Shown: positions 1 through 57,611 of the stretch, piece after piece
Numbering within the stretch: the first letter of the stretch is position 1
Layout: each line of letters begins with the position of its first letter
Source: a virus
IMG/VR virus record: IMGVR_UViG_3300045988_154277
Reading direction: 5' to 3' (one strand)
DNA length: 64,000 nucleotides
Made by a program: the position numbers and the translations under genes
The notes under the pieces: model-generated
Seen by the model: only the letters and a program-made list of their open reading frames with translations
The model's database searches: none
Told to the model about the DNA's origin: nothing

Positions 1-2630
1 CTCTCTTGTCCTTTAGCACTCTTGTCGACAGGACGATATGTCTGGTTGACCTTCTTCGTTCCTGCTCCTCCGACGATCAGGTTACCAGTTACTCCAGCCA
101 GAGCACTATCCTGGTCTTCTGCAGTCAGATATCCAGCAACCTGATCTCTCATCCGAGCTAAATCAGCGTCATACACCAAGGTGAAATCCCCATTCAACAC
201 ATCGTTCATGATCTCGTTGACCAGAACCGAATAGATGTGATGACTATGTGGGATCACGACGAAACTATCATCCACAGGATGCAGCCCTCTGAAATATTCC
301 AAGATCGCGATGCATCGTTCCGTATCGAGGTCATCTCCGTACTGCTGCATCATGTCGTTGACGCTTTCCGGAAGCATCCCTCTGGTGTACCAGATCGCTC
401 CGTTGCGCACACTGTTTGGGAGTTTCAGAAGTCCGTATTCATATTGCAGATCACGGATCGCCAATCCATCACAAGTGAGCATCGCCAGCTCTTGATACCA
501 ATACAAGAGCACGTTCAACGTATCGATGTAGTGAACTTTAACGAATCCATTCTCCTCTGTAAAACAGGGATCTGTTGTCACGTAGATCGTGAGGTTGTTA
601 TCCTCTGTTCCAGAGTTCAAGTATTCACTGTTATTCACCTGGATCGTTTGCGATGCGATATTCCCAAGCATACTCTTATTGACAGCATGAACGTAGTCAA
701 CGTCACGAACCAACTCACGTCCATTCAGATACACGATCGGATGAACCGTGTGGACCAACGGGATCTGGATCTGAGATCCATCACTCCACTGAGTAGCGTT
801 CACCATCAACATACCGGAGCCGATACTGTGACCGTACAGCTCACCTAATTTAAAGGTACGATTGTAAGCAGTGGTCATCAGTCGTTTCGAACAGATCAGG
901 AAGGTTCTTCCGAACTGATCCTCTCCGAACGAGATCGTCGATGTACCGTCTTCATTTTCAGTGATCGAGTAGTACGTCGACGTTAAACTCTCCGGATCGA
1001 TTTGTTCGTAGGTCTGATCTACTGAATACTGATCGGCGAAATAGTTGCTCTTCGGTTCATCGTCATCACGTTCTCTGACACGGAACACTACGACATCACC
1101 AGTGACGGTCAAGGTATTGTTCCCCTCCATCGGAGACAAATATTCCGCATAGAACTTCGAATTCTCAAAGAGTTCCACCACGATCTCTGTATTCAGTGGT
1201 AAAGGAACACTCTTATCGATACTGATGACGACATACTGTCCGTGCTTGTTCACGTTGTAGAGTGTGTCGTCCAGATGTTTTCCATCGACAAACACATGTG
1301 CTCCAATATATCGAAGTGGGATCATCGCCAGTGGAAGATCCACGGTGAACACATGGGTGGTGTTCGGTCCGATGGTTGTTCTGGTAACACGTTTGCACAG
1401 CAGAGACATCGTGTTGTAGAATCCAAGAGCTTGGATGTACCCTGTTAAGGAGTTCACTCCACTGAACAGTGGGTTCTTGAACATCAGGTCCACATATTTG
1501 CTGGATTCCAGATGATCTGCCCTCCAGAAGGGAAGGGATGAGTCTCCTCTTCCCACCAGGAAGTTAAGGATCTCCTCATCGGACAGCTGATACAACATGA
1601 ACAGATAGTTCGCTTCTCGGATCAGCTTCAATCCTTTGTTGTGACGTCTTGCGATCACTCGGATCTCGATCTCCGTGGTATCCAATGCATTCATGTATGC
1701 ATTCAGGAGGATCTCGCTGATCGCGAAATCGTTGTGTGTCAACTGGATGATCGCATCGGTTGTGTTGAACCGATGGAGGAACAGCCCCTTCAGATGAGAG
1801 TTCGCAGTCGATGTATTTAGAGGACGGACGAACATATCACAAGTGTTATGTGTGATCAGATAGTTCTCCGGGTTATCCTCTTTTGGGATATGCATGATGT
1901 AGTTGAATCTCGCGTACTTCTTACTGCGGTAGAGGTAGTTCTGACCAACCACAGACAAGTTCACTGTGAAATCACTGACGATGTCGGGATCCGTGATCAG
2001 CTCGATGTAGTCTCCGATCTGGATATCGTTCATCGAAGCAACCTGGCTTTCACGTCCGTTGATGAACACGATATTCGCCAGACGAGCCATATCCCAAGCT
2101 TGGTTCCTGCTCTCCAGGTTGTTAGGACGGAGACAATCCGTCGATAAGTTCGTCAGAGGTTCTCCGTCACTATCCACATAAACAGAGACGAAGATCTTCT
2201 TAAAGTTGTATCTTGCACCGAGTATCGTCCTGGCCATCTTCGCTTCGATCGCCATGATGAAGGAACTACGGCACGGATAGTTGGTAATGTAGATCCCACG
2301 TCTCCACAACCACTCCCCGTTCGTACCGGTCACTCTGAAATCAAATGGGTTGGTATCCAGCCACTCGTCCAAAGGTACCCAGTCTGGAACGTTGATATTG
2401 AGGTTCCCCATACAGCATTTGGGAACCTCATATACGTAATAAGAGTCGGTATAGGGGAGTAAAAGAGAGACCGGTCCAAGATCGACCGATCCCATCCGTG
2501 GTATCGCACTGATACACCGTGCTATAAAGTTCTGACGATACTCTGTTGTCGGCATGTTCCAAATGTGATCCAGACAGTACTTGTTCAGATATTTGGACAT
2601 CACCGTAGAAGTATCAATCGTAATGGACAT
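1..2630 (-). CDS. Large hypothetical protein, truncated at window edge (>875 aa; start codon at 2630-2628, C-terminal part lies beyond position 1)
   Basis: Manual minus-strand translation from ATG 2630 (MSITIDTSTVMSKYLNKY...) stays open to position 1. Absent from the ORF track because no stop falls inside the window. Start is 4 nt after the stop of the upstream gene (2635). Confidence 0.6.
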   Translation of the reverse strand, partial: MSITIDTSTVMSKYLNKYCLDHIWNMPTTEYRQNFIARCISAIPRMGSVDLGPVSLLLPYTDSYYVYEVPKCCMGNLNINVPDWVPLDEWLDTNPFDFRVTGTNGEWLWRRGIYITNYPCRSSFIMAIEAKMARTILGARYNFKKIFVSVYVDSDGEPLTNLSTDCLRPNNLESRNQAWDMARLANIVFINGRESQVASMNDIQIGDYIELITDPDIVSDFTVNLSVVGQNYLYRSKKYARFNYIMHIPKEDNPENYLITHNTCDMFVRPLNTSTANSHLKGLFLHRFNTTDAIIQLTHNDFAISEILLNAYMNALDTTEIEIRVIARRHNKGLKLIREANYLFMLYQLSDEEILNFLVGRGDSSLPFWRADHLESSKYVDLMFKNPLFSGVNSLTGYIQALGFYNTMSLLCKRVTRTTIGPNTTHVFTVDLPLAMIPLRYIGAHVFVDGKHLDDTLYNVNKHGQYVVISIDKSVPLPLNTEIVVELFENSKFYAEYLSPMEGNNTLTVTGDVVVFRVRERDDDEPKSNYFADQYSVDQTYEQIDPESLTSTYYSITENEDGTSTISFGEDQFGRTFLICSKRLMTTAYNRTFKLGELYGHSIGSGMLMVNATQWSDGSQIQIPLVHTVHPIVYLNGRELVRDVDYVHAVNKSMLGNIASQTIQVNNSEYLNSGTEDNNLTIYVTTDPCFTEENGFVKVHYIDTLNVLLYWYQELAMLTCDGLAIRDLQYEYGLLKLPNSVRNGAIWYTRGMLPESVNDMMQQYGDDLDTERCIAILEYFRGLHPVDDSFVVIPHSHHIYSVLVNEIMNDVLNGDFTLVYDADLARMRDQVAGYLTAEDQDSALAGVTGNLIVGGAGTKKVNQTYRPVDKSAKGQE

Positions 2631-2634
2631 GTTG

Positions 2635-3663
2635 TCACCGTTTAACCTTATTGATCACAGCTCCTGTTCCCATGATGTCATTGGCGAACTGGAGGATCTT
2701 GCCTTTGGTGTTACGTAATTTGATCACATTCGACATCGTCGGGATTTTCGCCCCGGATGCCACTCTCAACAACTGGTAAACCCAGTATGGGGGATACTCC
2801 AACGCGATCGCCATCGTGATGCTGTCTGCTGCACTGGAGGAGAGGAACCGATAGAGCTGAGTTTTCGTCAGCTTCCGCATCCGGTGAGGACCTCTCTGTT
2901 GTAGAGCAGTGCAAATCACTTCTGGTGTCCAGAGTTTATTCGGATGATGGTTAAGATCTTCCACACTCTTGATCCTGGATTGAATATCGTTCATGGTTCC
3001 AAGGAACCCACAACGATTCAACAGAGCAGGATAGAGGTTGGGACCTTCTCCCCCGAGAAGCTGTGCATAATACGCAGCGAACAGAGTCTGAACGAACATC
3101 GATTCATTGTAGTCCAACCCATAGATACGACCCAACTCTACACCGATCGTCGTAGCATACGATTCGATCACGAACGATGCCAGTTTCGGGGAGAGCCAAG
3201 GGTCATGATCCTCATATCCAGTAACCAGTGCAGCACGCACAAACAGACTCGCCAACATGGTCGAATCTGTAATATTGTACTGGACATTGTATGGGTCTAC
3301 TTTTGTCGATATGGAGGTCAAGTTCACCCAACATTTCTGAAACCGTGCCGGTACAGAAAGGTTGCGAACCGACTTCCCGTCGACTACGATGTCTTGGATC
3401 GTTAAGACTTCAGGTATATCGTCCACTACCCCACTTAAGTTGTAGCAGAGGAAGCTTTGAAGCTTATCCGATTCAACAAGATCCTGATAGATCTTGGAGA
3501 TCGGAGTGCTAGAGAAGATCCGTGTCTGCGCAACGTGGGATAACTGATCGGGTGTCAGCACAGTGTCCGCTGTGTCCTTAATAAGAAACGCTACGGCTTG
3601 CTGTAACGGGACTTGCCCGATCCTATCTGCGACGATCGAGACGTCAAAAAGAGATAATTTCAT
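2635..3663 (-). CDS. Hypothetical protein (342 aa)
   Basis: Long minus ORF with unbiased composition, tightly coupled to the downstream gene. Confidence 0.6.
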   Translation of the reverse strand: MKLSLFDVSIVADRIGQVPLQQAVAFLIKDTADTVLTPDQLSHVAQTRIFSSTPISKIYQDLVESDKLQSFLCYNLSGVVDDIPEVLTIQDIVVDGKSVRNLSVPARFQKCWVNLTSISTKVDPYNVQYNITDSTMLASLFVRAALVTGYEDHDPWLSPKLASFVIESYATTIGVELGRIYGLDYNESMFVQTLFAAYYAQLLGGEGPNLYPALLNRCGFLGTMNDIQSRIKSVEDLNHHPNKLWTPEVICTALQQRGPHRMRKLTKTQLYRFLSSSAADSITMAIALEYPPYWVYQLLRVASGAKIPTMSNVIKLRNTKGKILQFANDIMGTGAVINKVKR

Positions 3664-3741: not shown

Positions 3742-5868
3742 ATGGCGACGACTATTAAGCCATTCCCACATTATCAGATCAATGTGAAAGATAACTCCAT
3801 CTACAACGTGGAGTACACGACCATCCTCCCGGTGCATCGTCCGATCTGGATCATGCGCGCTCAGGAAGGACCGGTTGGGGATCCCGTGTGGTGTCCGACG
3901 TATACATTCGCTGCGGCTACTTTCGGTGAACAGACCTTCACCAATACCAATAAGAAGTACTACAGCAAACAGGCGAAAGTCCTGGTGGATACGCTGACCT
4001 ACAACGGTGCCTTCATCTGTCGTGCCGCCGATGAAACTGCTCTAAACTCAGTGGTGATCATCGAAGCTTGGGTTCGTCAGGTGAATGGAACCGAAGAAGA
4101 CGGAATCCTCCAGTACCTTTACGATGATGATGGACATCGACAAGTCGATGATGATGGCAACTACAAGCCGAAGAAAGACGGTGCTGGCAACAATGTGTAT
4201 GAACCTGGTCTCGAGATCAAGTACACACAGCGTTCCGCTCTGCTCTCTTCGGAAGAAGTTAGCGGTTTCGACTTCAGCTCTCTGCAGATGCGTCCAGAGG
4301 AGGATGGCGGCAAGAACTGGTCGGTTTACCCGATCATGGTCTTCGAAGCCCTCTATCCCGGCGAATACGGCAACGACCTCTGCTTCTCCCTGTTCTACAA
4401 GAACTCTGAGAACCTGGCTGGAGATGTCAACTTCTACAAGACGTTGTTCTACACTTTCGCTCCGGCTCGGAGAGATTACAACAGCACCACGGTTACTCCT
4501 CATTACGACATCTATAACACCACTCAGAACAGCTTCGCTGCGAACCCAGAGACGCTGAACCCCGATACTGGTGCTGAGATGTCGATGCAGGCGGTGTGCA
4601 ATAAAGCCTACGATGAAGATACGCATCAGCTTCCGTACACCATCTACACCTATGAAGAGAACCTGAACAAGATCGGTAACCTTATCGCTCAGTTTGAAAC
4701 GGAAGGGTCTCTTGGACTTACCAAACCTGATAATGTTTCGAATAGCGCTTTCGGCTACATGGTCAATGTGATCTCCTGCCGCAACCTCGGTGGAACGCCG
4801 TATGATCACGTCCGTCTGATCACCATCGACGAGACCGATGAAACTGTCGTTCAGCTTGCTGAAGACAGCTACATCTACCTGGCTGGTGGTTACGATGGCA
4901 GCGACATCGGCGATGAGATGGTTCAGAAGTGCATCCAGCAGTTCTGTGCTAAAAAACTCAATCCGAAGATCGTGGACAAGTTCCGCTATCCATTCACTCA
5001 CATGTACGATGTGGGTTACAACTTCGACACCAAGTACGCGATGCTCGATTTCCTCGATGTTCGCGACGACGTGATGATCGAACTGAGCACCCAGGTGCTC
5101 ATGGCGGATGGTACAGGTCGTACGATCCAGATGAACGACCAGATGACCGATGAGTCCAACGGCGAAGCTCTGCGTAGCCGTGCTCTGCTCATGCGGGAAT
5201 CGGTTCTCAAAGGCACCGACTGCTGCCGTTGTGCGATCTATGCGCATACCGGGTTCCTTGCGGATGGTGTCTACAGTGAACCCATGCCGTTCACTTACTG
5301 GAGTGCGATGAAGCACGCTATGTATGGCAACCTGCCGTATATGAACACGACCGAACCACGTGGTTGGCCTCAGAGCTACAACGAGTACTTCAAAGTCTCG
5401 TCTGTCAACTGGATCAACTACGATCCGGAAGGTCAGTCTCGTGTTTGGGACACTGGTATCAACTATGTCCAGTGGGCAGACATGTCTCGCATCTTCTATC
5501 CTGCTCTTCGCACCGTGTACCGTGCGGAAACCTCGGTGCTCGTCGATCAGTGGTTCGTCGATGCGGTGGTCTACACCAAGCATGTGGTTCGTAAAGCCTG
5601 GGGTAAGTTCAGCGGACGCAACGACAAAGTTGCTGTGCTGCAGCAAGGGATCAAGGAGTACCTTGATACCGAGCTCTCTTACCTGTACAACGGCAAGTAC
5701 GATTTCGAAGTCTCGGTCTATCAGACCGCCGAAGAACAGCGTATCGGATATATCCAGCACGTCCTGATCCGACTCACCAGTCCTGCCACCATGCGTGTGC
5801 TCGACGTTGATATCGAGGTCAACCGTGAAGGTTACAATCCGGAAGAAACAACTGCTGAAGCAGCGTAA
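3742..5868 (+). CDS. Structural protein, possibly contractile tail sheath (708 aa)
   Basis: 708-aa ORF with RBS GGAG 8 nt upstream of ATG. It is followed 10 nt later by a 342-aa ORF (sheath-then-tube arrangement). Size is similar to the phiKZ sheath at about 695 aa. Function inferred only from size and synteny. Confidence 0.35.
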   Translation: MATTIKPFPHYQINVKDNSIYNVEYTTILPVHRPIWIMRAQEGPVGDPVWCPTYTFAAATFGEQTFTNTNKKYYSKQAKVLVDTLTYNGAFICRAADETALNSVVIIEAWVRQVNGTEEDGILQYLYDDDGHRQVDDDGNYKPKKDGAGNNVYEPGLEIKYTQRSALLSSEEVSGFDFSSLQMRPEEDGGKNWSVYPIMVFEALYPGEYGNDLCFSLFYKNSENLAGDVNFYKTLFYTFAPARRDYNSTTVTPHYDIYNTTQNSFAANPETLNPDTGAEMSMQAVCNKAYDEDTHQLPYTIYTYEENLNKIGNLIAQFETEGSLGLTKPDNVSNSAFGYMVNVISCRNLGGTPYDHVRLITIDETDETVVQLAEDSYIYLAGGYDGSDIGDEMVQKCIQQFCAKKLNPKIVDKFRYPFTHMYDVGYNFDTKYAMLDFLDVRDDVMIELSTQVLMADGTGRTIQMNDQMTDESNGEALRSRALLMRESVLKGTDCCRCAIYAHTGFLADGVYSEPMPFTYWSAMKHAMYGNLPYMNTTEPRGWPQSYNEYFKVSSVNWINYDPEGQSRVWDTGINYVQWADMSRIFYPALRTVYRAETSVLVDQWFVDAVVYTKHVVRKAWGKFSGRNDKVAVLQQGIKEYLDTELSYLYNGKYDFEVSVYQTAEEQRIGYIQHVLIRLTSPATMRVLDVDIEVNREGYNPEETTAEAA

Positions 5869-7826: not shown

Positions 7827-7847
7827 GTAATATATACGTGAAAAACG
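7827..7847 (-). promoter_or_regulatory. Early-type promoter P1 (minus-strand core TATATATTAC; plus strand GTAATATATACGTGAAAAACG)
   Basis: One of seven copies of the conserved motif. Always placed as gene-stop, hairpin, motif, next minus-strand gene. The core equals the reported phiKZ early consensus TATATTAC. Confidence 0.6.
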
Positions 7848-15478: not shown

Positions 15479-15499
15479 GTAATATATACGTGAAAAACG
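15479..15499 (-). promoter_or_regulatory. Early-type promoter P2 (core TATATATTAC)
   Basis: Sits in a ~55-nt cassette identical to the one at 29850 (ctgtcaggtactcattaagtaatatatacgtgaaaaacgatgaactacactg). Confidence 0.6.
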
Positions 15500-15504
15500 A
15501 TGAA

Positions 15505-15541
15505 CTACACTGAGGGTGCTGACTACGCACCCTCAGTGTAG
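15505..15541 (-). terminator. Terminator hairpin (ctacactgagggtgc...gcaccctcagtgtag)
   Basis: 15-bp stem after stop 15615. The minus-strand tail UUCAUCGUUUUUCACG runs into the promoter. Confidence 0.6.
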
Positions 15542-15614
15542 TTGTGTTATTATACAAAAAAGATAGTGATAACAGAGATGTCCGGACATCTCTGTTATCA
15601 CTTAGTGTGTAAGG

Positions 15615-20571: not shown

Positions 20572-20588
20572 GTAATATATACGTGAAA
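20572..20588 (-). promoter_or_regulatory. Early-type promoter P3 (core TATATATTAC)
   Basis: Motif GTAATATATACGTGAAAG follows terminator 20658-20693. Confidence 0.55.
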
Positions 20589-27660: not shown

Positions 27661-27670
27661 GCATAGCATG
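27661..27670 (-). promoter_or_regulatory. Candidate second-class promoter element (minus strand CATGCTATGC), 37 nt upstream of the giant gene ATG
   Basis: The same decamer, allowing one mismatch, occurs 35 nt upstream of the 33447..34919 ATG and 33 nt upstream of the beta-prime ATG. It contains TATG, the reported phiKZ late element. Confidence 0.35.
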
Positions 27671-29849: not shown

Positions 29850-29870
29850 GTAATATATACGTGAAAAACG
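29850..29870 (-). promoter_or_regulatory. Early-type promoter P4 (core TATATATTAC), in a duplicated 55-nt cassette
   Basis: Identical to the P2 cassette. Confidence 0.6.
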
Positions 29871-29875
29871 ATGAA

Positions 29876-29910
29876 CTACACTGGGTAGGATCATCTCCTA
29901 CCCAGTGTAG
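29876..29910 (-). terminator. Terminator hairpin (ctacactgggtagga...tcctacccagtgtag)
   Basis: 15-bp stem after stop 29917. Confidence 0.6.
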
Positions 29911-29916
29911 TTGTTA

Positions 29917-32250: not shown

Positions 32251-33450
32251 TTAGCCCTTTATATTTTCAATCGCTTTTTCATATGCAGCTAGCTTGACTT
32301 TCAAGCTATCATTCTCTGCGATGAGTTGTTTCATCTCGGTATTGAAGAGTTTGTCGATCAACAGCTCACCAGGTGTATCGTCGATCACTTCCTGTCTGGC
32401 TTGGTTGATACTGTTGTACTCTTCTGTGGTAAGATAGATATCATCGTAGCGGTTGATCTTAACCAGTTCCTTATCCGCTGGGAACTGCTTCCCATCCGCT
32501 TTGATGCCGTATCTCACTTCCAAGAGTTCGGTGAGAAGCATGATCATATCCGTGACCATCTCCAGATCAGAGAAGACTCCAAGATTGATACCTAAGATCA
32601 GTTTGTCATATCGTGCGATGGATCCATCCGGAACTCCATCGACAAAAGACAAAGGTATGTAGATCACGATATCTTCATTCCGTGGATCAACCAACTTGTA
32701 GAACATCGTGTTCTGGAAAGAAGGTTCGTCCTTGTTGTAGACATCCTTAGCAACTCCGATCGGGGCGTACAGATTGTTGTACACGTCGATACCAGACGAC
32801 AACACATCTTTGTAAGAGAGGATCTTATCAACTCGATATACCCCACAGTACACATCGTGATATGGACTGTCTGGATCTCGAGAGTAACCCAACTTCTCAA
32901 AGTCTTTTACGAAGGTGAACCGATAGATCTTCCCAAGGATCAGATTGACTGTATCGTAACGTTGTGTCGTCAACGTGTTGTAGTTGGTCTTGGTCACCGT
33001 CCGGTTGGTCTCAGAGAACCGATAATTCGTGAATGCATTGTAGTACATCACGGACTGCGTTGTGATCAGATCACCTGTCACAGGATCGGTAGATGTGACG
33101 GGTTCACCGACGGTGATCTGGATGTTCGGATCATCGAACGCTGCAAGAGTTGGAGCATTATCCTCTCCGATATCACCTTTCTCCGTATCAACAGCATAGG
33201 TGACATTCCAAGGATCGGTAACTTCTGTTGTCGGTTGATATTCCGAGTAGTAGATTTTGAGACGATCGTACGAAGCGATCACCCATCCTCTACCACTCAA
33301 GTAATATACAACGACCCGTTGATCGAGCTTATCAGCGATACCACTCCACTCTCGGGCATTCCCAGATGTGGAAGGATCAACAACGGTGAGGTTTTGATTG
33401 ACAACAGCGGTTCCGGCTCCTGTAATACGGATACCTCTCTGTTCCATCAA
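32251..33450 (-). CDS. Structural hypothetical protein (399 aa)
   Basis: Tightly coupled within the block. Confidence 0.5.
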   Translation of the reverse strand: MMEQRGIRITGAGTAVVNQNLTVVDPSTSGNAREWSGIADKLDQRVVVYYLSGRGWVIASYDRLKIYYSEYQPTTEVTDPWNVTYAVDTEKGDIGEDNAPTLAAFDDPNIQITVGEPVTSTDPVTGDLITTQSVMYYNAFTNYRFSETNRTVTKTNYNTLTTQRYDTVNLILGKIYRFTFVKDFEKLGYSRDPDSPYHDVYCGVYRVDKILSYKDVLSSGIDVYNNLYAPIGVAKDVYNKDEPSFQNTMFYKLVDPRNEDIVIYIPLSFVDGVPDGSIARYDKLILGINLGVFSDLEMVTDMIMLLTELLEVRYGIKADGKQFPADKELVKINRYDDIYLTTEEYNSINQARQEVIDDTPGELLIDKLFNTEMKQLIAENDSLKVKLAAYEKAIENIKG

Positions 33451-34954: not shown

Positions 34955-34964
34955 GCATAGCATG
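34955..34964 (-). promoter_or_regulatory. Candidate second-class promoter element (minus strand CATGCTATGC)
   Basis: See 27661..27670. Confidence 0.35.
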
Positions 34965-41449: not shown

Positions 41450-41463
41450 GTAATATATACTCA
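41450..41463 (-). promoter_or_regulatory. Early-type promoter P5 (core TATATATTAC) driving the intron-containing beta-C gene
   Basis: Motif GTAATATATACTC sits about 60 nt upstream of the exon 1 start. The plus-strand gene 41482 also begins 20 nt to its right, so orientation here is ambiguous. Confidence 0.45.
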
Positions 41464-49352: not shown

Positions 49353-49363
49353 GGGGGGGGGGG
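49353..49363. repeat. G11 homopolymer tract in intergenic DNA
   Basis: gtcgggggggggggtaag. Confidence 0.8.
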
Positions 49364-51741: not shown

Positions 51742-51817
51742 AACGTTCTCCTTATATAGGTCATAGCATGAGACTAAGAATGTGTCTCTCGGAGAAAGAA
51801 AAAGAAGCAAAAAGAAA

Positions 51818-53581: not shown

Positions 53582-54157
53582 TTAAACTCTCCCTGGTATA
53601 AATGTGAGGTTCACTCTGAGCATCGGTATGTTGTGGTTGTGATACATCTCAAGAGTTTCTTGTTTTTGATTATCATAGAGTACAGTACACCGGACATTCT
53701 TGAGTGGAGTGTATTGTATCAGTTGTTTGGTGAACTCCTCCGTATCAAGATCCACGTAGAATCTGATGTTTTCCTTATCGGTTGGGAATATATCAGGACT
53801 GAACTCACGATTCAATACAGCTCGGAATGACTCTTCCGAAATGAATTGTATATCCGGTAGTACCGGGCTGGACCATAGTGAGATTTTGCGATCCCACATG
53901 GTACTCCACACAATGTTTTTACTCACTACGTAGTAGTGGAGATCGGGTCGCTGTATGCATTCGGATATGAGCATCGAGAGCAATGTCTCTGTCTTACCGG
54001 ATTGCCGACATCCGCATATTGCAGTGAACACCGGTTCCGGATGCCAAACACGAGTACGAACTTTATCAAAGAACACATCCAACTCATGGTCGTACATGTG
54101 TTCGAAGGTTCGACGAATGGTTTCGAGCTTCTCAGCTCTGTTTGGTTTAGATTGCAT
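53582..54157 (-). CDS. P-loop NTPase (about 191 aa, start MQSKPN)
   Basis: Walker A GCRQSGKT. RBS AAGGAGG before the ATG at 54157. Confidence 0.5.
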   Translation of the reverse strand: MQSKPNRAEKLETIRRTFEHMYDHELDVFFDKVRTRVWHPEPVFTAICGCRQSGKTETLLSMLISECIQRPDLHYYVVSKNIVWSTMWDRKISLWSSPVLPDIQFISEESFRAVLNREFSPDIFPTDKENIRFYVDLDTEEFTKQLIQYTPLKNVRCTVLYDNQKQETLEMYHNHNIPMLRVNLTFIPGRV

Positions 54158-54280
54158 TAGAATCCTCCTTGGGTTGATGGGTATAACTTGTTTGTCCTTG
54201 TGATATATTAAGAGTGACATCATACAACAACGACGATCTACATTGACCAGATCAGACATCAGGGTAGAATTGGGAGAACG

Positions 54281-54421
54281 TTAGTTAGTTACAACACTCT
54301 TCTTAGAGAAGAGTTGTCGTCTTAATTCTCGCAGATATGCTTCTTTTGCTCTGACACGAGTCATGACCTCGTCCATATGCTGAGAAGCACTCTTACTTGA
54401 ATTAGCGTAAGAGAACGCCAT
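54281..54421 (-). CDS. Small protein (46 aa, MAFSYANSSKSASQHMDEV...), member of a tandem small-gene family
   Basis: Below the ORF-track cut-off; found by manual translation. RBS GGAGGTGATCGAT. Paralogous to the next three small genes. Confidence 0.5.
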   Translation of the reverse strand: MAFSYANSSKSASQHMDEVMTRVRAKEAYLRELRRQLFSKKSVVTN

Positions 54422-54581
54422 ATCGATCACCTCCAGTCTAACCGTTCAGGTACGAATGAACGGATAAGTTCGGTTAGATCAGATCTGTATGTTGTTGTAT
54501 GAGTCACTTAAATTCAAAGAGTGATAGGAAATGTTACGGCAGTTGTTGACCAGACAAGACATCAACAACCGAGTTCACTGG

Positions 54582-54728
54582 TTATTTCTGTGGATGCTTG
54601 ACGATCCATCTTCTCCAATCTAAGTTAGACTGGTTAGGATGTCTTTGCATTACAGATTGCATGTGTTCTGAAGCTGTCGGTGGGACTAATACTTCAGGAT
54701 GTTTAGCATCGATGTATGCAAATGCCAT
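54582..54728 (-). CDS. Small protein (48 aa, MAFAYIDAKHPEVLVPPTASEHMQSV...)
   Basis: Manual translation. RBS GAAGGAGGTGAGCTCT. Confidence 0.5.
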   Translation of the reverse strand: MAFAYIDAKHPEVLVPPTASEHMQSVMQRHPNQSNLDWRRWIVKHPQK

Positions 54729-54894
54729 AGAGCTCACCTCCTTCTACCACAAACAGGGAACTGTCTTTGTGGTGTGACAGGTTGGAGCATGTCTGTAATA
54801 CACCTCCTATCACTTAAATTCAAAAGAGTGATGGGTTGTAGATGTGCGAAAATCACCAACCAGATCAGTCATCGGTGATTTGTGTCACGTACGA

Positions 54895-55068
54895 TCATTG
54901 AGCGATAGCAACACTCGATGCTTTTGACGTGAGTTTTGCATCAATAACACGTGTTTGCTTAAGAGCATTGCGCTCCCAGCGTTGACGATCACGTGCTTCT
55001 TGTTCAGCAACACACTTGTATCCGGCATTCGGATCTAAGATGCGTTTGAAGAACTCATCTGAGGTCAT
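54895..55068 (-). CDS. Small protein (57 aa, MTSDEFFKRILDPNAGYKCVAEQ...)
   Basis: Manual translation. RBS TAGGAGGTGATGTCAT. Confidence 0.45.
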   Translation of the reverse strand: MTSDEFFKRILDPNAGYKCVAEQEARDRQRWERNALKQTRVIDAKLTSKASSVAIAQ

Positions 55069-55547
55069 ATGACATCACCTCCTAACTACTGTAGATTAAA
55101 CAGTCTTGCAGTAGGACTGGTTATAAGAGTCAGTAACAGAACCTCTCTCCTTCAGGTGAGGGATGTATGTTACTACGAACTATTCTTCCGTTGGACGTTA
55201 GTCCATCGTGATGTAATAGAAGGACAGTATGCTAAGAACATATGGTTAAAATGTTCTTGTTGCCTGGAACAGGCCATCGACGTAAGTCGGTGTACTCGGT
55301 AACACGAGGAAGCTCCTTCCTTCAGGTAGGAGTAGTTCACGTTCAGATCTGTAGTCACCTACCATCCATCACTCGTCTTATCGAAAAAGAGACAGCTAAG
55401 GGATGAAGGATACAACTCCTTCATCCCTTAGCTAATCGTGTATTCGAAGTATAACTCTACACACGTTGGATATAGTAAGAACAACACTTCACAGTTGTCG
55501 AAACAACATCGACCAGATCAGTCATCGATGTTGAATTGTACTCACAT

Positions 55548-55745
55548 CTAAGTGGTTAACATTGCCACGATAGATGGCGTTTTAGTTGGTTTGTTGCTGT
55601 GATATATTCCGTAGTGTTTACGGAGCATATCCATCAACATCTTCTGCTTAGCTTTGGCACGTGCTACACGAGCATCATGCATTTCAGAAGCAGATTTAGG
55701 AGATAGCACGGTTGGGTGCTTCTCATCCATCATCGCAAACGGCAT
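55548..55745 (-). CDS. Small protein (65 aa, MPFAMMDEKHPTVLSPKSASEMHDARV...)
   Basis: RBS TAGGAGGTGATTTGT. Shares MxFA...KHPxVL...ASExH with the 54582 gene. Confidence 0.5.
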   Translation of the reverse strand: MPFAMMDEKHPTVLSPKSASEMHDARVARAKAKQKMLMDMLRKHYGIYHSNKPTKTPSIVAMLTT

Positions 55746-55846
55746 ACAAATCACCTCCTAACTACCGACTCAAGCACAAGTGAGTCGATCAGCTTGGTTG
55801 GATCAGATCTGTAAAACTATGAAGTGTTGTTCAATACAAACAAGTT

Positions 55847-55886
55847 AGCTAGGGATAGTGGAGTGTTCGCCTCCACTATCCCTAGC
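55847..55886 (-). terminator. Terminator hairpin (17-bp stem agctagggatagtggag)
   Basis: Follows the lysozyme stop at 55893. Confidence 0.55.
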
Positions 55887-55892
55887 TGGTTA

Positions 55893-56426
55893 TTAGTTGA
55901 CTTTGTTCCAGAGGTTGGACTCAGCCTGTCTACGTTTAACAAGCCCCGGTGCGATATCGTAAACGATCTTACCGTTCTTATCCTTTACGATTTTGCCCTT
56001 CGAGACTCTCTTCACTTTGTTCCATCTCTGGATCTCAGAGGGAACCGAACCATACTGGCGCTGGTTCAGTTTCTTAAGGAGAGTGGATGAAGCGAAGTTC
56101 GATCTCCCCACGTTGTAAGTGAATACGATGAGAGCAGCCTTCTGGTTGTCCGTCAGAGGGACCTTGACCTGTGTATCGATATATCCACCGATACTGGTTA
56201 CGTATCCGTCCAGAATACGATTTGCTTCTTCTTTAGTCATGTGACCACGAGCAACGAGGTTCTTATCATTAAACCCCCAACCGATGGCTTTCTTGTTGAC
56301 ATCAGTGTAGGGGGCTGAACGGAAGGTTTCGAACTGCTTGATCAGTTCGGTTGCCGAAGTCTTCCAATCTTGTGCGAAGACGTTGATGGTGAGGATGATG
56401 GTGATAAGAGTGATGATGTGTTTCAT
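55893..56426 (-). CDS. GH24 (T4-lysozyme family) muramidase with N-terminal signal peptide (177 aa)
   Basis: Signal peptide [45 protein letters not shown] aligns to [44 protein letters not shown] aligns to [29 protein letters not shown] at the C-terminus. Confidence 0.7.
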   Translation of the reverse strand: [177 protein letters not shown]

Positions 56427-56485
56427 GTTGTTGATTCCTTTTGTTTAGGGTTGTTGGGTTGATACAGCTAGATGTATTCAATAAG

Positions 56486-56504
56486 TAATATATATGCGAA
56501 ATCT
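56486..56504 (-). promoter_or_regulatory. Early-type promoter P7 (core TATATATTAC) with upstream CAGTGTAGTTCA element
   Basis: CAGTGTAGTTCA sits 12 nt upstream of the core, the same spacing as in P2 and P4. Confidence 0.55.
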
Positions 56505-57601: not shown

Positions 57602-57611
57602 CCCCCCCCCC
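57602..57611. repeat. C10 homopolymer tract (G10 on the minus strand) in a divergent intergenic region
   Basis: accccccccccgcag. Confidence 0.8.

Follow-up and report, generated by a model that had tools for sequence, protein, structure and literature searches.

An array of small-gene cassettes with complementary, covarying ends in a phiKZ-like jumbo phage

The stretch of viral DNA under study (IMG/VR record IMGVR_UViG_3300045988_154277; 64,000 nucleotides, in the following called the window) carries a tandem array of four small genes, A to D, on its minus strand between positions 54281 and 55745. Minus-strand reading of positions 53800-56300 and the listing of open reading frames (ORFs) confirm the four genes with strong ribosome-binding sites that had been put forward in an original prediction made without database searches: each ORF is preceded by (A/T)GGAGGTGA, and the ATG follows 5-6 nt on. 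The genes are embedded in cassettes of uniform organization. On the coding strand, each cassette starts with a 5' arm of 15-19 nt, which is followed by the leader motif (T)ACAG-NNN-TG, a short leader hairpin, the ribosome-binding site and the ORF of 46-65 amino acids (aa); a 3' hairpin with a near-invariant 12-nt loop, a 3' arm and a U/A-rich junction complete the unit (Table 1). The subject of this study is the set of pairings between these elements, which span each gene, and what they may mean for the expression and exchange of the cassettes.

All repeated motifs are restricted to a 1.7-kb stretch of the window. The spacer repeats listed in the original prediction were recovered, namely four GACCAGATCAGTCATCG-type copies (54243-54261, 54546-54564, 54856-54874, 55509-55527) and two exact copies of TCACTTAAATTCAAA (54504-54518, 54810-54824), the latter accompanied by a third, degenerate copy at 54203-54217. 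The sequence TACAGATCTGA occurs exactly three times in the 64 kb, each time in the array, and the array is also the only place with matches to the loop motif (at most one mismatch) and to the junction box, for which 0.02-0.41 matches are expected. The "AAATTCAAA hairpins" and the "tcacttAAATTCAAAgagtga hairpin" of the original prediction are junctions between the arms of neighbouring cassettes, and the "tcacttAAATTCAAAgagtga hairpin" consists of the final bases of a 3' arm, then 11 nt of AT-rich spacer and the initial bases of the 5' arm that follows. The gene-spanning inverted repeats, the complementarity between leader motif and 3' loop, and a 216-nt insertion in the leader of B had all been missed. 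Instead of plain promoter and terminator copies, the spacers would be parts of a long-range fold around each gene.

Table 1. Features of the small-gene array and phiKZ-type promoter motifs in the window
Feature	Positions	Strand	Description
Gene A	55548-55745	-	65 aa; ribosome-binding site AGGAGGTGA at 55751-55759, upstream sequence TTAGGAGGTGA; one long predicted helix (residues 19-45); dN/dS 0.24
Gene B	54895-55068	-	57 aa; preceded by TTAGGAGGTGA; second small-protein family, DRQRW motif; dN/dS 0.16
Gene C	54582-54728	-	48 aa; preceded by GAAGGAGGTGA; dN/dS 0.03
Gene D	54281-54421	-	46 aa; preceded by ACTGGAGGTGA; dN/dS 0.23
Canonical intrinsic terminator after endolysin gene	55847-55887	-	17-bp stem, then T-rich tail
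Cassette A 5' arm GAACAACACTTCATAGTT	55815-55832	-	pairs 18/18 (one G-U) with 55479-55496
Cassette A leader motif TACAGATCTGATCC	55800-55813	-	hexamer CAGATC complementary to A 3' hairpin loop
Cassette A leader hairpin CGACTCA/TGAGTCG	55766-55787	-	directly 5' of ribosome-binding site
Cassette A 3' hairpin	55504-55533	-	9-bp stem, conserved loop TGACTGATCTGG
Cassette A 3' arm AACTGTGAAGTGTTGTTC	55479-55496	-	pairs with A 5' arm
Second canonical intrinsic terminator, between cassettes A and B	55394-55433	-	
Cassette B 5' arm GAGTGATGGATGGTAGGTG	55356-55374	-	pairs with B 3' arm
Cassette B leader motif TACAGATCTGAAC	55341-55353	-	
216-nt miniature element in B leader	55123-55338	+	right end matches right end of IS605-family TnpB element
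Cassette B leader hairpin CTACTG/CAGTAG	55086-55114	-	
Cassette B 3' hairpin	54850-54881	-	10-bp stem, loop TGACTGATCTGG
Cassette B 3' arm CATCTACAACCCATCACTC	54826-54844	-	pairs with B 5' arm
B/C junction TTTTGAATTTA	54815-54825	-	AT-rich; small hairpin with flanking arm ends
Cassette C 5' arm AGTGATAGGAGGTGT	54800-54814	-	pairs with C 3' arm
Cassette C leader motif TACAGACATGCTC	54785-54797	-	hexamer CAGACA complementary to the loop of C itself
Cassette C leader hairpin CCACAAA/TTTGTGG	54747-54772	-	
Cassette C 3' hairpin	54542-54570	-	loop TGTCTTGTCTGG, hexamer TGTCTG
Cassette C 3' arm ACATTTCCTATCACT	54520-54534	-	pairs with C 5' arm
C/D junction CTTTGAATTTA	54509-54519	-	
Cassette D 5' arm AGTGACTCATACAACAAC	54491-54508	-	pairs with D 3' arm
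Cassette D leader motif TACAGATCTGATCT	54476-54489	-	
Cassette D leader hairpin CCGTTCA/TGAACGG	54442-54463	-	
Cassette D 3' hairpin	54237-54268	-	loop TGTCTGATCTGG
Cassette D 3' arm GTTGTTGTATGATGTCACT	54213-54231	-	18 bp, one bulged T
Promoter motif TATATTAC	56485-56492, 41450-41457, 33301-33308, 29850-29857, 20572-20579, 15479-15486, 7827-7834	-	

The coding status of the four ORFs was assessed with orthologues from more than 20 related contigs (labels L001, L005, L134 and so on denote related contigs, and labels of the type P0021 related proteins). The ratios of nonsynonymous to synonymous substitution rates (dN/dS) given in Table 1, which for B refer to the 57-aa allele, document purifying selection in frame, and the same alignments read in the other two frames as a control yielded values of 0.8-3.4. 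Strong, properly spaced ribosome-binding sites are kept in all relatives. Conservation in related genomes had been named beforehand as one point on which the gene calls depend; the ORFs are conserved there, under selection that is specific to the annotated frame. By these measures the four ORFs are real protein-coding genes of a clade-restricted family. The N-terminal pattern that had been ascribed to three of them stands for A and C, which have MxFA..D.KHPxVL.P..ASE in common, and in part for D, which shares MAFxY and SASxHM only and lacks the KHPxVL segment owing to a 7-residue gap. It does not extend to B, which represents a separate family with its conservation centred on DRQRW. The profile built from A, C and D found 29 proteins, none from outside the clade of the window phage, and when 1.84 billion representatives were searched exhaustively with a profile, the matches were members of the same clade only, together with three marginal ones. 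A tblastn search of known phages with protein A gave no match, and PHROG and Pfam searches gave nothing significant for A to D or for the neighbouring genes E, g53 and g144.

The proteins are short, hydrophilic and basic, mostly with a single amphipathic helix and with no membrane segment. AlphaFold2 predicts one long helix (residues 19-45, predicted local distance difference test [pLDDT] about 81-87) with disordered ends; this model (mean pLDDT 68, single helix) was judged insufficient for a fold search. The description of the genes as a rapidly evolving family has to be divided: a real, clade-restricted family in a plastic locus is retained, and fast evolution is not seen at the sequence level, given the dN/dS of 0.03 for C and its protein identity of 91-100% across relatives. 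The C-termini of gene C are frameshifted or truncated in several relatives (P0012, P0013, P0022, P0023; for example L127:4001-4168) despite the very low dN/dS elsewhere. An 18-codon upstream ORF in the C leader (54734-54790, minus strand) has its own GGAGGTG and overlaps the ribosome-binding site of C. It was treated as spurious because it is not conserved in relatives and lies within the 5' arm and leader hairpin of C; some metagenome gene calls fuse it to C (P0005, P0007, P0010).

A notable property of the array is the complementarity of the cassette ends. In each cassette, complementarity exists between the 15-19 nt directly before the leader motif and the 15-19 nt directly after the 3' hairpin. 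The arm sequences are cassette-specific, and only the outer AGTGA/TCACT ends are common, namely to B, C and D. Cognate 5'/3' flank duplexes in the window reach -26 to -29 kcal/mol, compared with -6 to -21 kcal/mol for non-cognate combinations, and 0-3 of 1000 shuffles attain the observed energies. After removal of the shared ends, the cognate arm duplexes retain -10 to -25 kcal/mol, and off-diagonal combinations are no stronger than -7 kcal/mol. Every relative retains the terminal stems, with cognate energies between -21 and -36 kcal/mol. On a more distant 361-kb contig, A-type arms are readable with compensatory changes, and automated extraction of the flanks yielded a value of only -9.9 kcal/mol. 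When B, C and D are compared, 94.4% of the arm cells are paired (24-52% with a slid partner), 11 of 15 pairs have changed on both sides, and none of 500 shuffles matches this. Compensation is also visible among orthologues alone, with four compensatory pairs in B (94.7% paired) and two in C.

The hairpins follow the same rule. The 3' hairpin has a near-invariant loop of 12 nt, TG(A/T)CT(G/T/C)(A/G)TCTGG, on a stem of 9-10 bp that differs from cassette to cassette. Its stem cells are paired in 88.8% of cases, compared with 21-53% for a slid partner; both sides have changed in 8 of 10 pairs, and the A orthologues document a C-G to U-A change with a G-U intermediate. The four leaders can all be aligned as (T)ACAG-NNN-TG...yAACC, short hairpin and ribosome-binding site. 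Their hairpin stems are unrelated in sequence (CGACTCA, CTACTG, CCACAAA and CCGTTCA with their complements), and the pairing is kept.

A third pairing connects the two ends of the cassette at a distance. The leader hexamer is the reverse complement of the loop hexamer in the 3' hairpin of the same cassette. Three states occur, namely CAGATC/GATCTG in A, B and D, CAGACA or CAGGCA/TGTCTG in the window-type C, and CAGGCG/CGTCTG in the L003-type C. All 192 cells of this contact are paired in 32 distinct cassettes, and the sole two variable positions of the loop hexamer co-vary with the leader, one pair changing from UA to CG and the other from CG to AU or GC. Cognate leader-loop duplexes reach -8.8 to -12 kcal/mol; the C leader and the loop of the adjacent upstream B attain only -3.9 to -4.9 kcal/mol. 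A comparison of the intergenic repeats across related phages, which the original prediction had suggested as a check, shows that the pairings are kept, with compensatory changes in arms, stems and contact. At the level of these alignments, conservation and covariation hold for all three sets of pairs, in arms, 3' hairpin stems and leader-loop contact.

Several properties of the pairings bear on the molecule in which they would form. The non-Watson-Crick pairs of the terminal stems, read on the coding strand, are 22 G-U versus 5 A-C, and all wobbles in the leader-loop contact are G-U on that strand. In folds of whole cassettes, the terminal stem is part of the minimum-energy and centroid structures, with z-scores of -8.4 for A, -5.4 for C and -4.7 for D. 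The 3' arms are followed by U/A-rich junctions, and the arm length corresponds to the stem length of the canonical terminators of the window phage. Together, the G-U bias, the cassette folds, the U/A-rich tails and the arm length favour the transcript. From these patterns we infer pairing in RNA and a closure of each mRNA that would define and protect its ends. The z-scores are also what structured non-coding RNAs with incidental ORFs would produce, an explanation that is extremely improbable in view of the strong frame-specific purifying selection and of the strong, well-spaced ribosome-binding sites conserved in all relatives. The conserved-loop 3' hairpins were not called in the terminator scan (loops of 12 nt rather than 3-8 nt, weak tails), in which both canonical terminators were called. 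Cassette A has the conserved-loop hairpin and, 70 nt further on, a canonical terminator; the hairpin is therefore not simply a terminator.

We read the locus as a variable array of self-contained small-gene cassettes in which each mRNA would close on itself by a fold that marks and protects its ends, and our confidence in this reading is evenly balanced. The following course of events would be expected. The 5' arm and the leader motif would be transcribed first. Once the polymerase has passed the ORF, the 3' hairpin would form and its loop would kiss the leader motif. The 5' arm would thereby be held beside the emerging 3' arm, and the two arms would zip into a terminal stem that closes the whole message. 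Most likely, the closed stem with its U/A-rich tail would act as a long-range terminator or processing stalk and also as a double end-cap, and each small gene would thereby become a monocistronic unit that is insulated and protected from nucleases. The conserved modules of leader and 3' end would double as patches of homology through which cassettes are swapped, lost and gained among co-circulating phages.

A number of observations weigh against this reading. Strong canonical terminators precede the 5' arms of A and B by 14-20 nt, so that the presence of these arms in RNA would need read-through of the terminators or a start within the short AT-rich junction. A transcription start at or after TACAG could not be reconciled with a terminal stem in RNA. 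The tails past the 3' arms are only moderately U-rich, with 4-5 U in 8 nt, and the wobble bias would fit folded single-stranded DNA of the same strand too. The covariation is mostly between four paralogous cassette types and thus comprises few independent events, and about three double substitutions are the basis of the leader-loop contact. The window contains GATC in 3.7-fold excess (913 occurrences, about 246 expected from base composition); the canonical CAGATC/GATCTG match is for this reason weak evidence by itself, and the variants of cassette C carry the argument.

Covarying end pairing raises the question of hok-style type I toxin modules, that is, of small toxic peptides whose mRNAs stay inert through 5'-3' end pairing until they are processed. 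The tac/fbi interaction of the hok mRNA joins the 5' and 3' ends and shows phylogenetic covariation (PMC9841398). As in hok/sok, an ORF of about 50 aa (46-65 aa in the array) is combined with a 5' end that would pair with the 3' end of the mRNA and with covariation in support, and the predicted fold of A lets the leader motif pair alternatively with the spacer between ribosome-binding site and AUG. This alternative pairing of the initiation region is not conserved across cassettes, however, and the hydrophilic, basic products with one amphipathic helix do not resemble hydrophobic toxins. A mok-like overlapping frame was not identified, the only overlapping upstream frame (54734-54790) being not conserved, nor was an antisense RNA signal in the sequence. 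The pairing is longer than in hok (15-19 bp plus the loop contact), and four tandem modules would be atypical for a lytic phage. All in all, a toxin function of this type appears very unlikely. A role of the leader motif as an anti-ribosome-binding-site element, which is predicted for A and D, was dropped as it is not conserved in B or in the variants of C. Retrons, type III toxin-antitoxin systems and CRISPR-like arrays were rejected as well, since the units encode selected proteins and have no reverse transcriptase or nuclease partner.

The array is located between the endolysin gene and a conserved 144-aa gene and comprises two to four small genes in the relatives. C and D are present in every relative, B in most and A in a subset, and B occurs as two alleles that are only about 44% identical in protein. 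Identity along the locus is mosaic. The window and L001/L213 are about 100% identical from A through B and only 90% identical in C; L005, L221 and L243 are 96-100% identical to the window from C onwards. One example of exchange is found in the alignment with L005, in which the B leader and 3' hairpin are nearly identical and enclose another allele of the coding sequence. Genomes whose B coding sequences cannot be aligned have B leaders with 98-100% identity. Near-identical B linkers around different alleles are the signature of cassette replacement via conserved linkers. In L134/L135, which lack B, the end of the deletion coincides with the junction or with the AGTGAT at which an arm starts. 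The indel of A lies between two homologous canonical terminators, not at the arms of A. By analogy with the promoter-early stem-loop (PeSL) cassettes of T4-type phages, for which this has been proposed (PMC2839356), the conserved modules behave like recombination linkers.

This plasticity also suits an explanation at the DNA level, according to which the arms are halves of a hairpin that is local only in circular or tandem cassettes, their pairing is selected in single-stranded DNA, and the cassettes, in the manner of integron cassettes or PeSL mini-circles, are mobilised by recombination within the AT-rich junction loop that they share. The gain and loss of whole cassettes, the ends of the B deletion and the breaks of the mosaic identity blocks near cassette borders agree with it. 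A 3' arm, junction and 5' arm placed side by side would give a perfect local hairpin, and PeSL crossovers are located inside the stem-loop's loop (PMC2839356). The whole array is moreover bracketed by a perfect 12-nt inverted repeat (TAACTTGTTTGT / ACAAACAAGTTA, minus strand; 55836-55847 and 54184-54195), with one copy just past the first terminator and the other in the leader of a 191-aa gene; this repeat is, however, missing from relatives without cassette A and could be due to chance (about 0.1 expected in the region). The position of the A indel speaks against recombination at the arms, and no recombinase was recognised among the neighbouring genes with Pfam and PHROG. In the present array, about 300 nt separate the two arms, the junction hairpins have only 5 bp, and all elements are co-oriented with the genes, with U/A-rich tails past the 3' arms. 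On this balance, we regard selection of the pairing in DNA as unlikely.

The leader of B contains a 216-nt insertion (55123-55338) that is absent from L005, L004, L002 and L003; these have the unoccupied sequence TACAGATCTGAACGT|AACCAG. L134 contains a full IS605-family element (1956-3218) with a gene for a 408-aa TnpB (PF12323, PF01385, PF07282), and the end of the insertion matches the right end of this element. The right-end boundary can be read at four sites (window, L003, L134, L135), all of which end in GTAGTTC|A, and both ends of the element bear hairpins with a (C)TTCAGGT loop. Copies or remnants are present elsewhere in the locus (L135 about 4849-4921, L003 about 4637-4658, L125 4143-4279), and P0021 and P0033 are D genes that are fused to or interrupted by an element of this type. 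A tblastn search for tnpB in the 64-kb window found none, and the Rfam scan gave no match for the element. Judged from its right end, the insertion is a TnpB-related miniature element of the IS200/IS605 family. It lies within the loop that the fold of cassette B would close, and the arms and the leader motif are intact. The TnpB-derived miniature element moving within the locus indicates active IS605-family mobility inside jumbo phage genomes.

The promoter complement of the window was compared with that of phiKZ-like phages, which are independent of the host RNA polymerase (PMC7598289). PMC7058600 lists TATATTAC as the predicted core of the phiKZ promoter. The window has seven copies of this motif (1.07 expected; Table 1), all of them on the minus strand and most of them in the context TTTTTCACGTATATATTACTTAATGAGTA just past a terminator. 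Two terminator-plus-promoter units of about 60 nt are near-identical (15486-15543 and 29857-29912). The TATATTAC copies are probably early-type promoters of the window phage. A second motif, CATGCTATG, is present in three exact copies on the minus strand (27662-27670, 34956-34964, 51762-51770), each shortly past a canonical terminator and upstream of a gene, and may be the counterpart of the late TATG initiator of phiKZ (PMC7598289). The leader motif of the array fits neither class. The junction box was rejected as a genome-wide promoter as it is confined to the array, both in the window and in a 197-kb relative, and a general promoter class is not supported for TACAGATCTGA, which is confined to the array as well. 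The likeness of CACTCTTT to the lambda/rrn boxA, with the hairpin as boxB, was dropped in view of a match of only 6 nt and of a host RNA polymerase that is probably irrelevant.

These data bear on the model of the original prediction, in which ordinary early or host-takeover genes carry their own repeated promoter and terminator and the long-range complementarity would be a functionless relic of duplication. Small orphan proteins with strong ribosome-binding sites in a jumbo phage are what this model expects, and upstream of the endolysin gene next to the array a phiKZ-type TATATTAC copy (56485-56492) is found. For the jumbo phages N1M2 and OBP, promoters with the terminal sequence AAGTGWA have been predicted (PMC7058600), and the AT-rich junctions, with AAGTGA at their ends, look similar; we take this resemblance as a lead only. 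With a transcription start at this place, the message would begin with the 5' arm. No exact TATATTAC is found within the cassette array, however. Sigma-70-like promoters are not in excess in the scan (5 versus 7.7 expected), with none in the junctions, and the conserved-loop hairpins, which have no good U-tract, were not among the terminators called. C is highly conserved instead of fast evolving, and the compensatory changes in arms, hairpin stems and leader-loop contact would be unexpected of a relic. The assignment to early or host-takeover functions finds no support, with TATATTAC absent from the cassettes and no PHROG or Pfam match for the proteins, and the model as a whole seems quite improbable.

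The genomic context of the array identifies the host genome of the cassettes. The window belongs to a divergent phage with genes for the beta and beta' parts of a split multisubunit RNA polymerase and with a tail sheath gene. The RNA polymerase genes match the PHROG families 3015, 3295 and 2986 with E values of 1e-87 to 1e-125, and tblastn with RNA polymerase matched 314 jumbo-phage records at about 32% identity; the nearest cultured phages share merely about 32% identity in one RNA polymerase subunit. The endolysin gene is located directly upstream of the array, and a gene adjoining the array encodes an internal head protein of phiKZ type (PF12699 phiKZ_IP). Metagenomic relatives reside on contigs of 255-278 kb, and at least one of the samples is labelled gut; ERZ15610112, ERZ16268244 and ERZ28567831 are examples of samples with related contigs. 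By its gene content the window phage is a phiKZ-like jumbo phage; the split RNA polymerase genes, the internal head protein and the contig size of the relatives bear out the earlier assignment to jumbo phages. A blastn search of the 3-kb region against 50,697 phage records gave no match. Scans of the collection with short motifs (a 15-mer of the loop, a 17-mer of the leader) yielded mostly chance matches and recovered the true relatives L050, L213, L221 and L243. A tRNA search found none, and the Rfam scan (E up to 1) returned only chance matches of microRNA models on terminator hairpins.

Further observations concern the surroundings of the array. The 191-aa gene downstream (53582-54157, minus strand) contains a Walker A-like GCRQSGKT motif and has weak similarity to the N-termini of terminase ATPases. 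It is swapped for a 59-aa gene in some relatives, and the variable region thus reaches past the four small genes. Two long G homopolymers are present in the window, a G11 at 49353-49363 (plus strand) and a G10 at 57602-57611 (minus strand), with 0.05 expected.

Among the closest counterparts of the cassettes are the PeSL cassettes (Arbiol et al. 2010, PMC2839356), which occupy hyperplastic regions in T4-type phages. Both systems comprise small orphan genes that lie within a variable part of the genome of a large lytic phage and are flanked one by one by conserved composite non-coding modules. In both, the modules seem to mediate insertion, deletion and replacement between close relatives, which is documented here for orphan genes with indels, and to insulate the genes transcriptionally. 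Unlike PeSL, the cassettes of the window lack a sigma-70 promoter, and the phage encodes its own multisubunit RNA polymerases. Their main stem is not local but spans the gene and is specific for the cassette, with a local 3' hairpin present besides, and the covarying contact between leader and 3' loop is an addition.

Long-range duplexes between leader and trailer are also known from single bacterial mRNAs. In Bacillus subtilis hbs, a 14-bp interaction of the 5' and 3' untranslated regions modulates cleavage by RNase Y (PMC5737220), and in the icaR mRNA of Staphylococcus aureus the interaction of the two untranslated regions includes pairing with its own ribosome-binding site (PMC3868564). The cassettes have in common with them the long-range duplex, a short mRNA, a strong ribosome-binding site and, as a proposed role, the control of nuclease access. 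However, hbs and icaR are single chromosomal genes without a kissing loop or an array of cassettes, and the arms of the window cassettes do not pair with the ribosome-binding site as in icaR. In rRNA precursors, RNase III processing stalks bracket the rRNAs, their flanks pairing over a long range in a stem of about 15-20 bp that defines both ends. The cassettes resemble these stalks in that flanking sequences pair over a distance around a functional unit; unlike the stalks, their units would be mRNAs, and their stems are at the lower limit for RNase III. Integron attC arrays likewise consist of tandem, co-oriented small ORFs of variable content, each of which is followed by a hairpin-forming element. 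In attC, however, the stem bases are conserved and the centre varies, whereas the cassettes of the window combine a conserved loop with variable stems. Their long arms enclose the gene instead of lying between genes, and the neighbouring proteins have no integrase or recombinase domain.

The gene-by-gene fold with its leader-loop code extends both the end-paired mRNAs and the PeSL-like cassettes; the structural claims are strong, and the mechanism in RNA is what we infer from them. The literature searched contains no description of a gene-by-gene long-range fold with a covarying leader-loop code. As a tentative proposal, about which we are more doubtful than confident, the cassettes could represent an undescribed class of mRNA units with the gene enclosed in a stem, the closure of which is nucleated by a re-codable leader-loop contact with three orthogonal codes. 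Such a fold would terminate, insulate and end-protect the messages of a jumbo phage that has RNA polymerases of its own, would perhaps sort or export them, and through its modules the genes would become portable between genomes.

If the fold forms in RNA, it would provide a compact and repeatable route to insulated, nuclease-resistant monocistronic messages without host factors. Its specificity would reside in six changeable base pairs. It could be a design for the stabilisation of synthetic mRNAs in bacteria, and the covarying leader-loop code makes the model directly testable by swapping codes. The finding would carry the idea behind PeSL, namely that regulatory modules double as sites of shuffling, from T4-type phages to the phiKZ-like lineage and, if true, bears on how jumbo phages that bypass host transcription organise the expression of their many small orphan genes.

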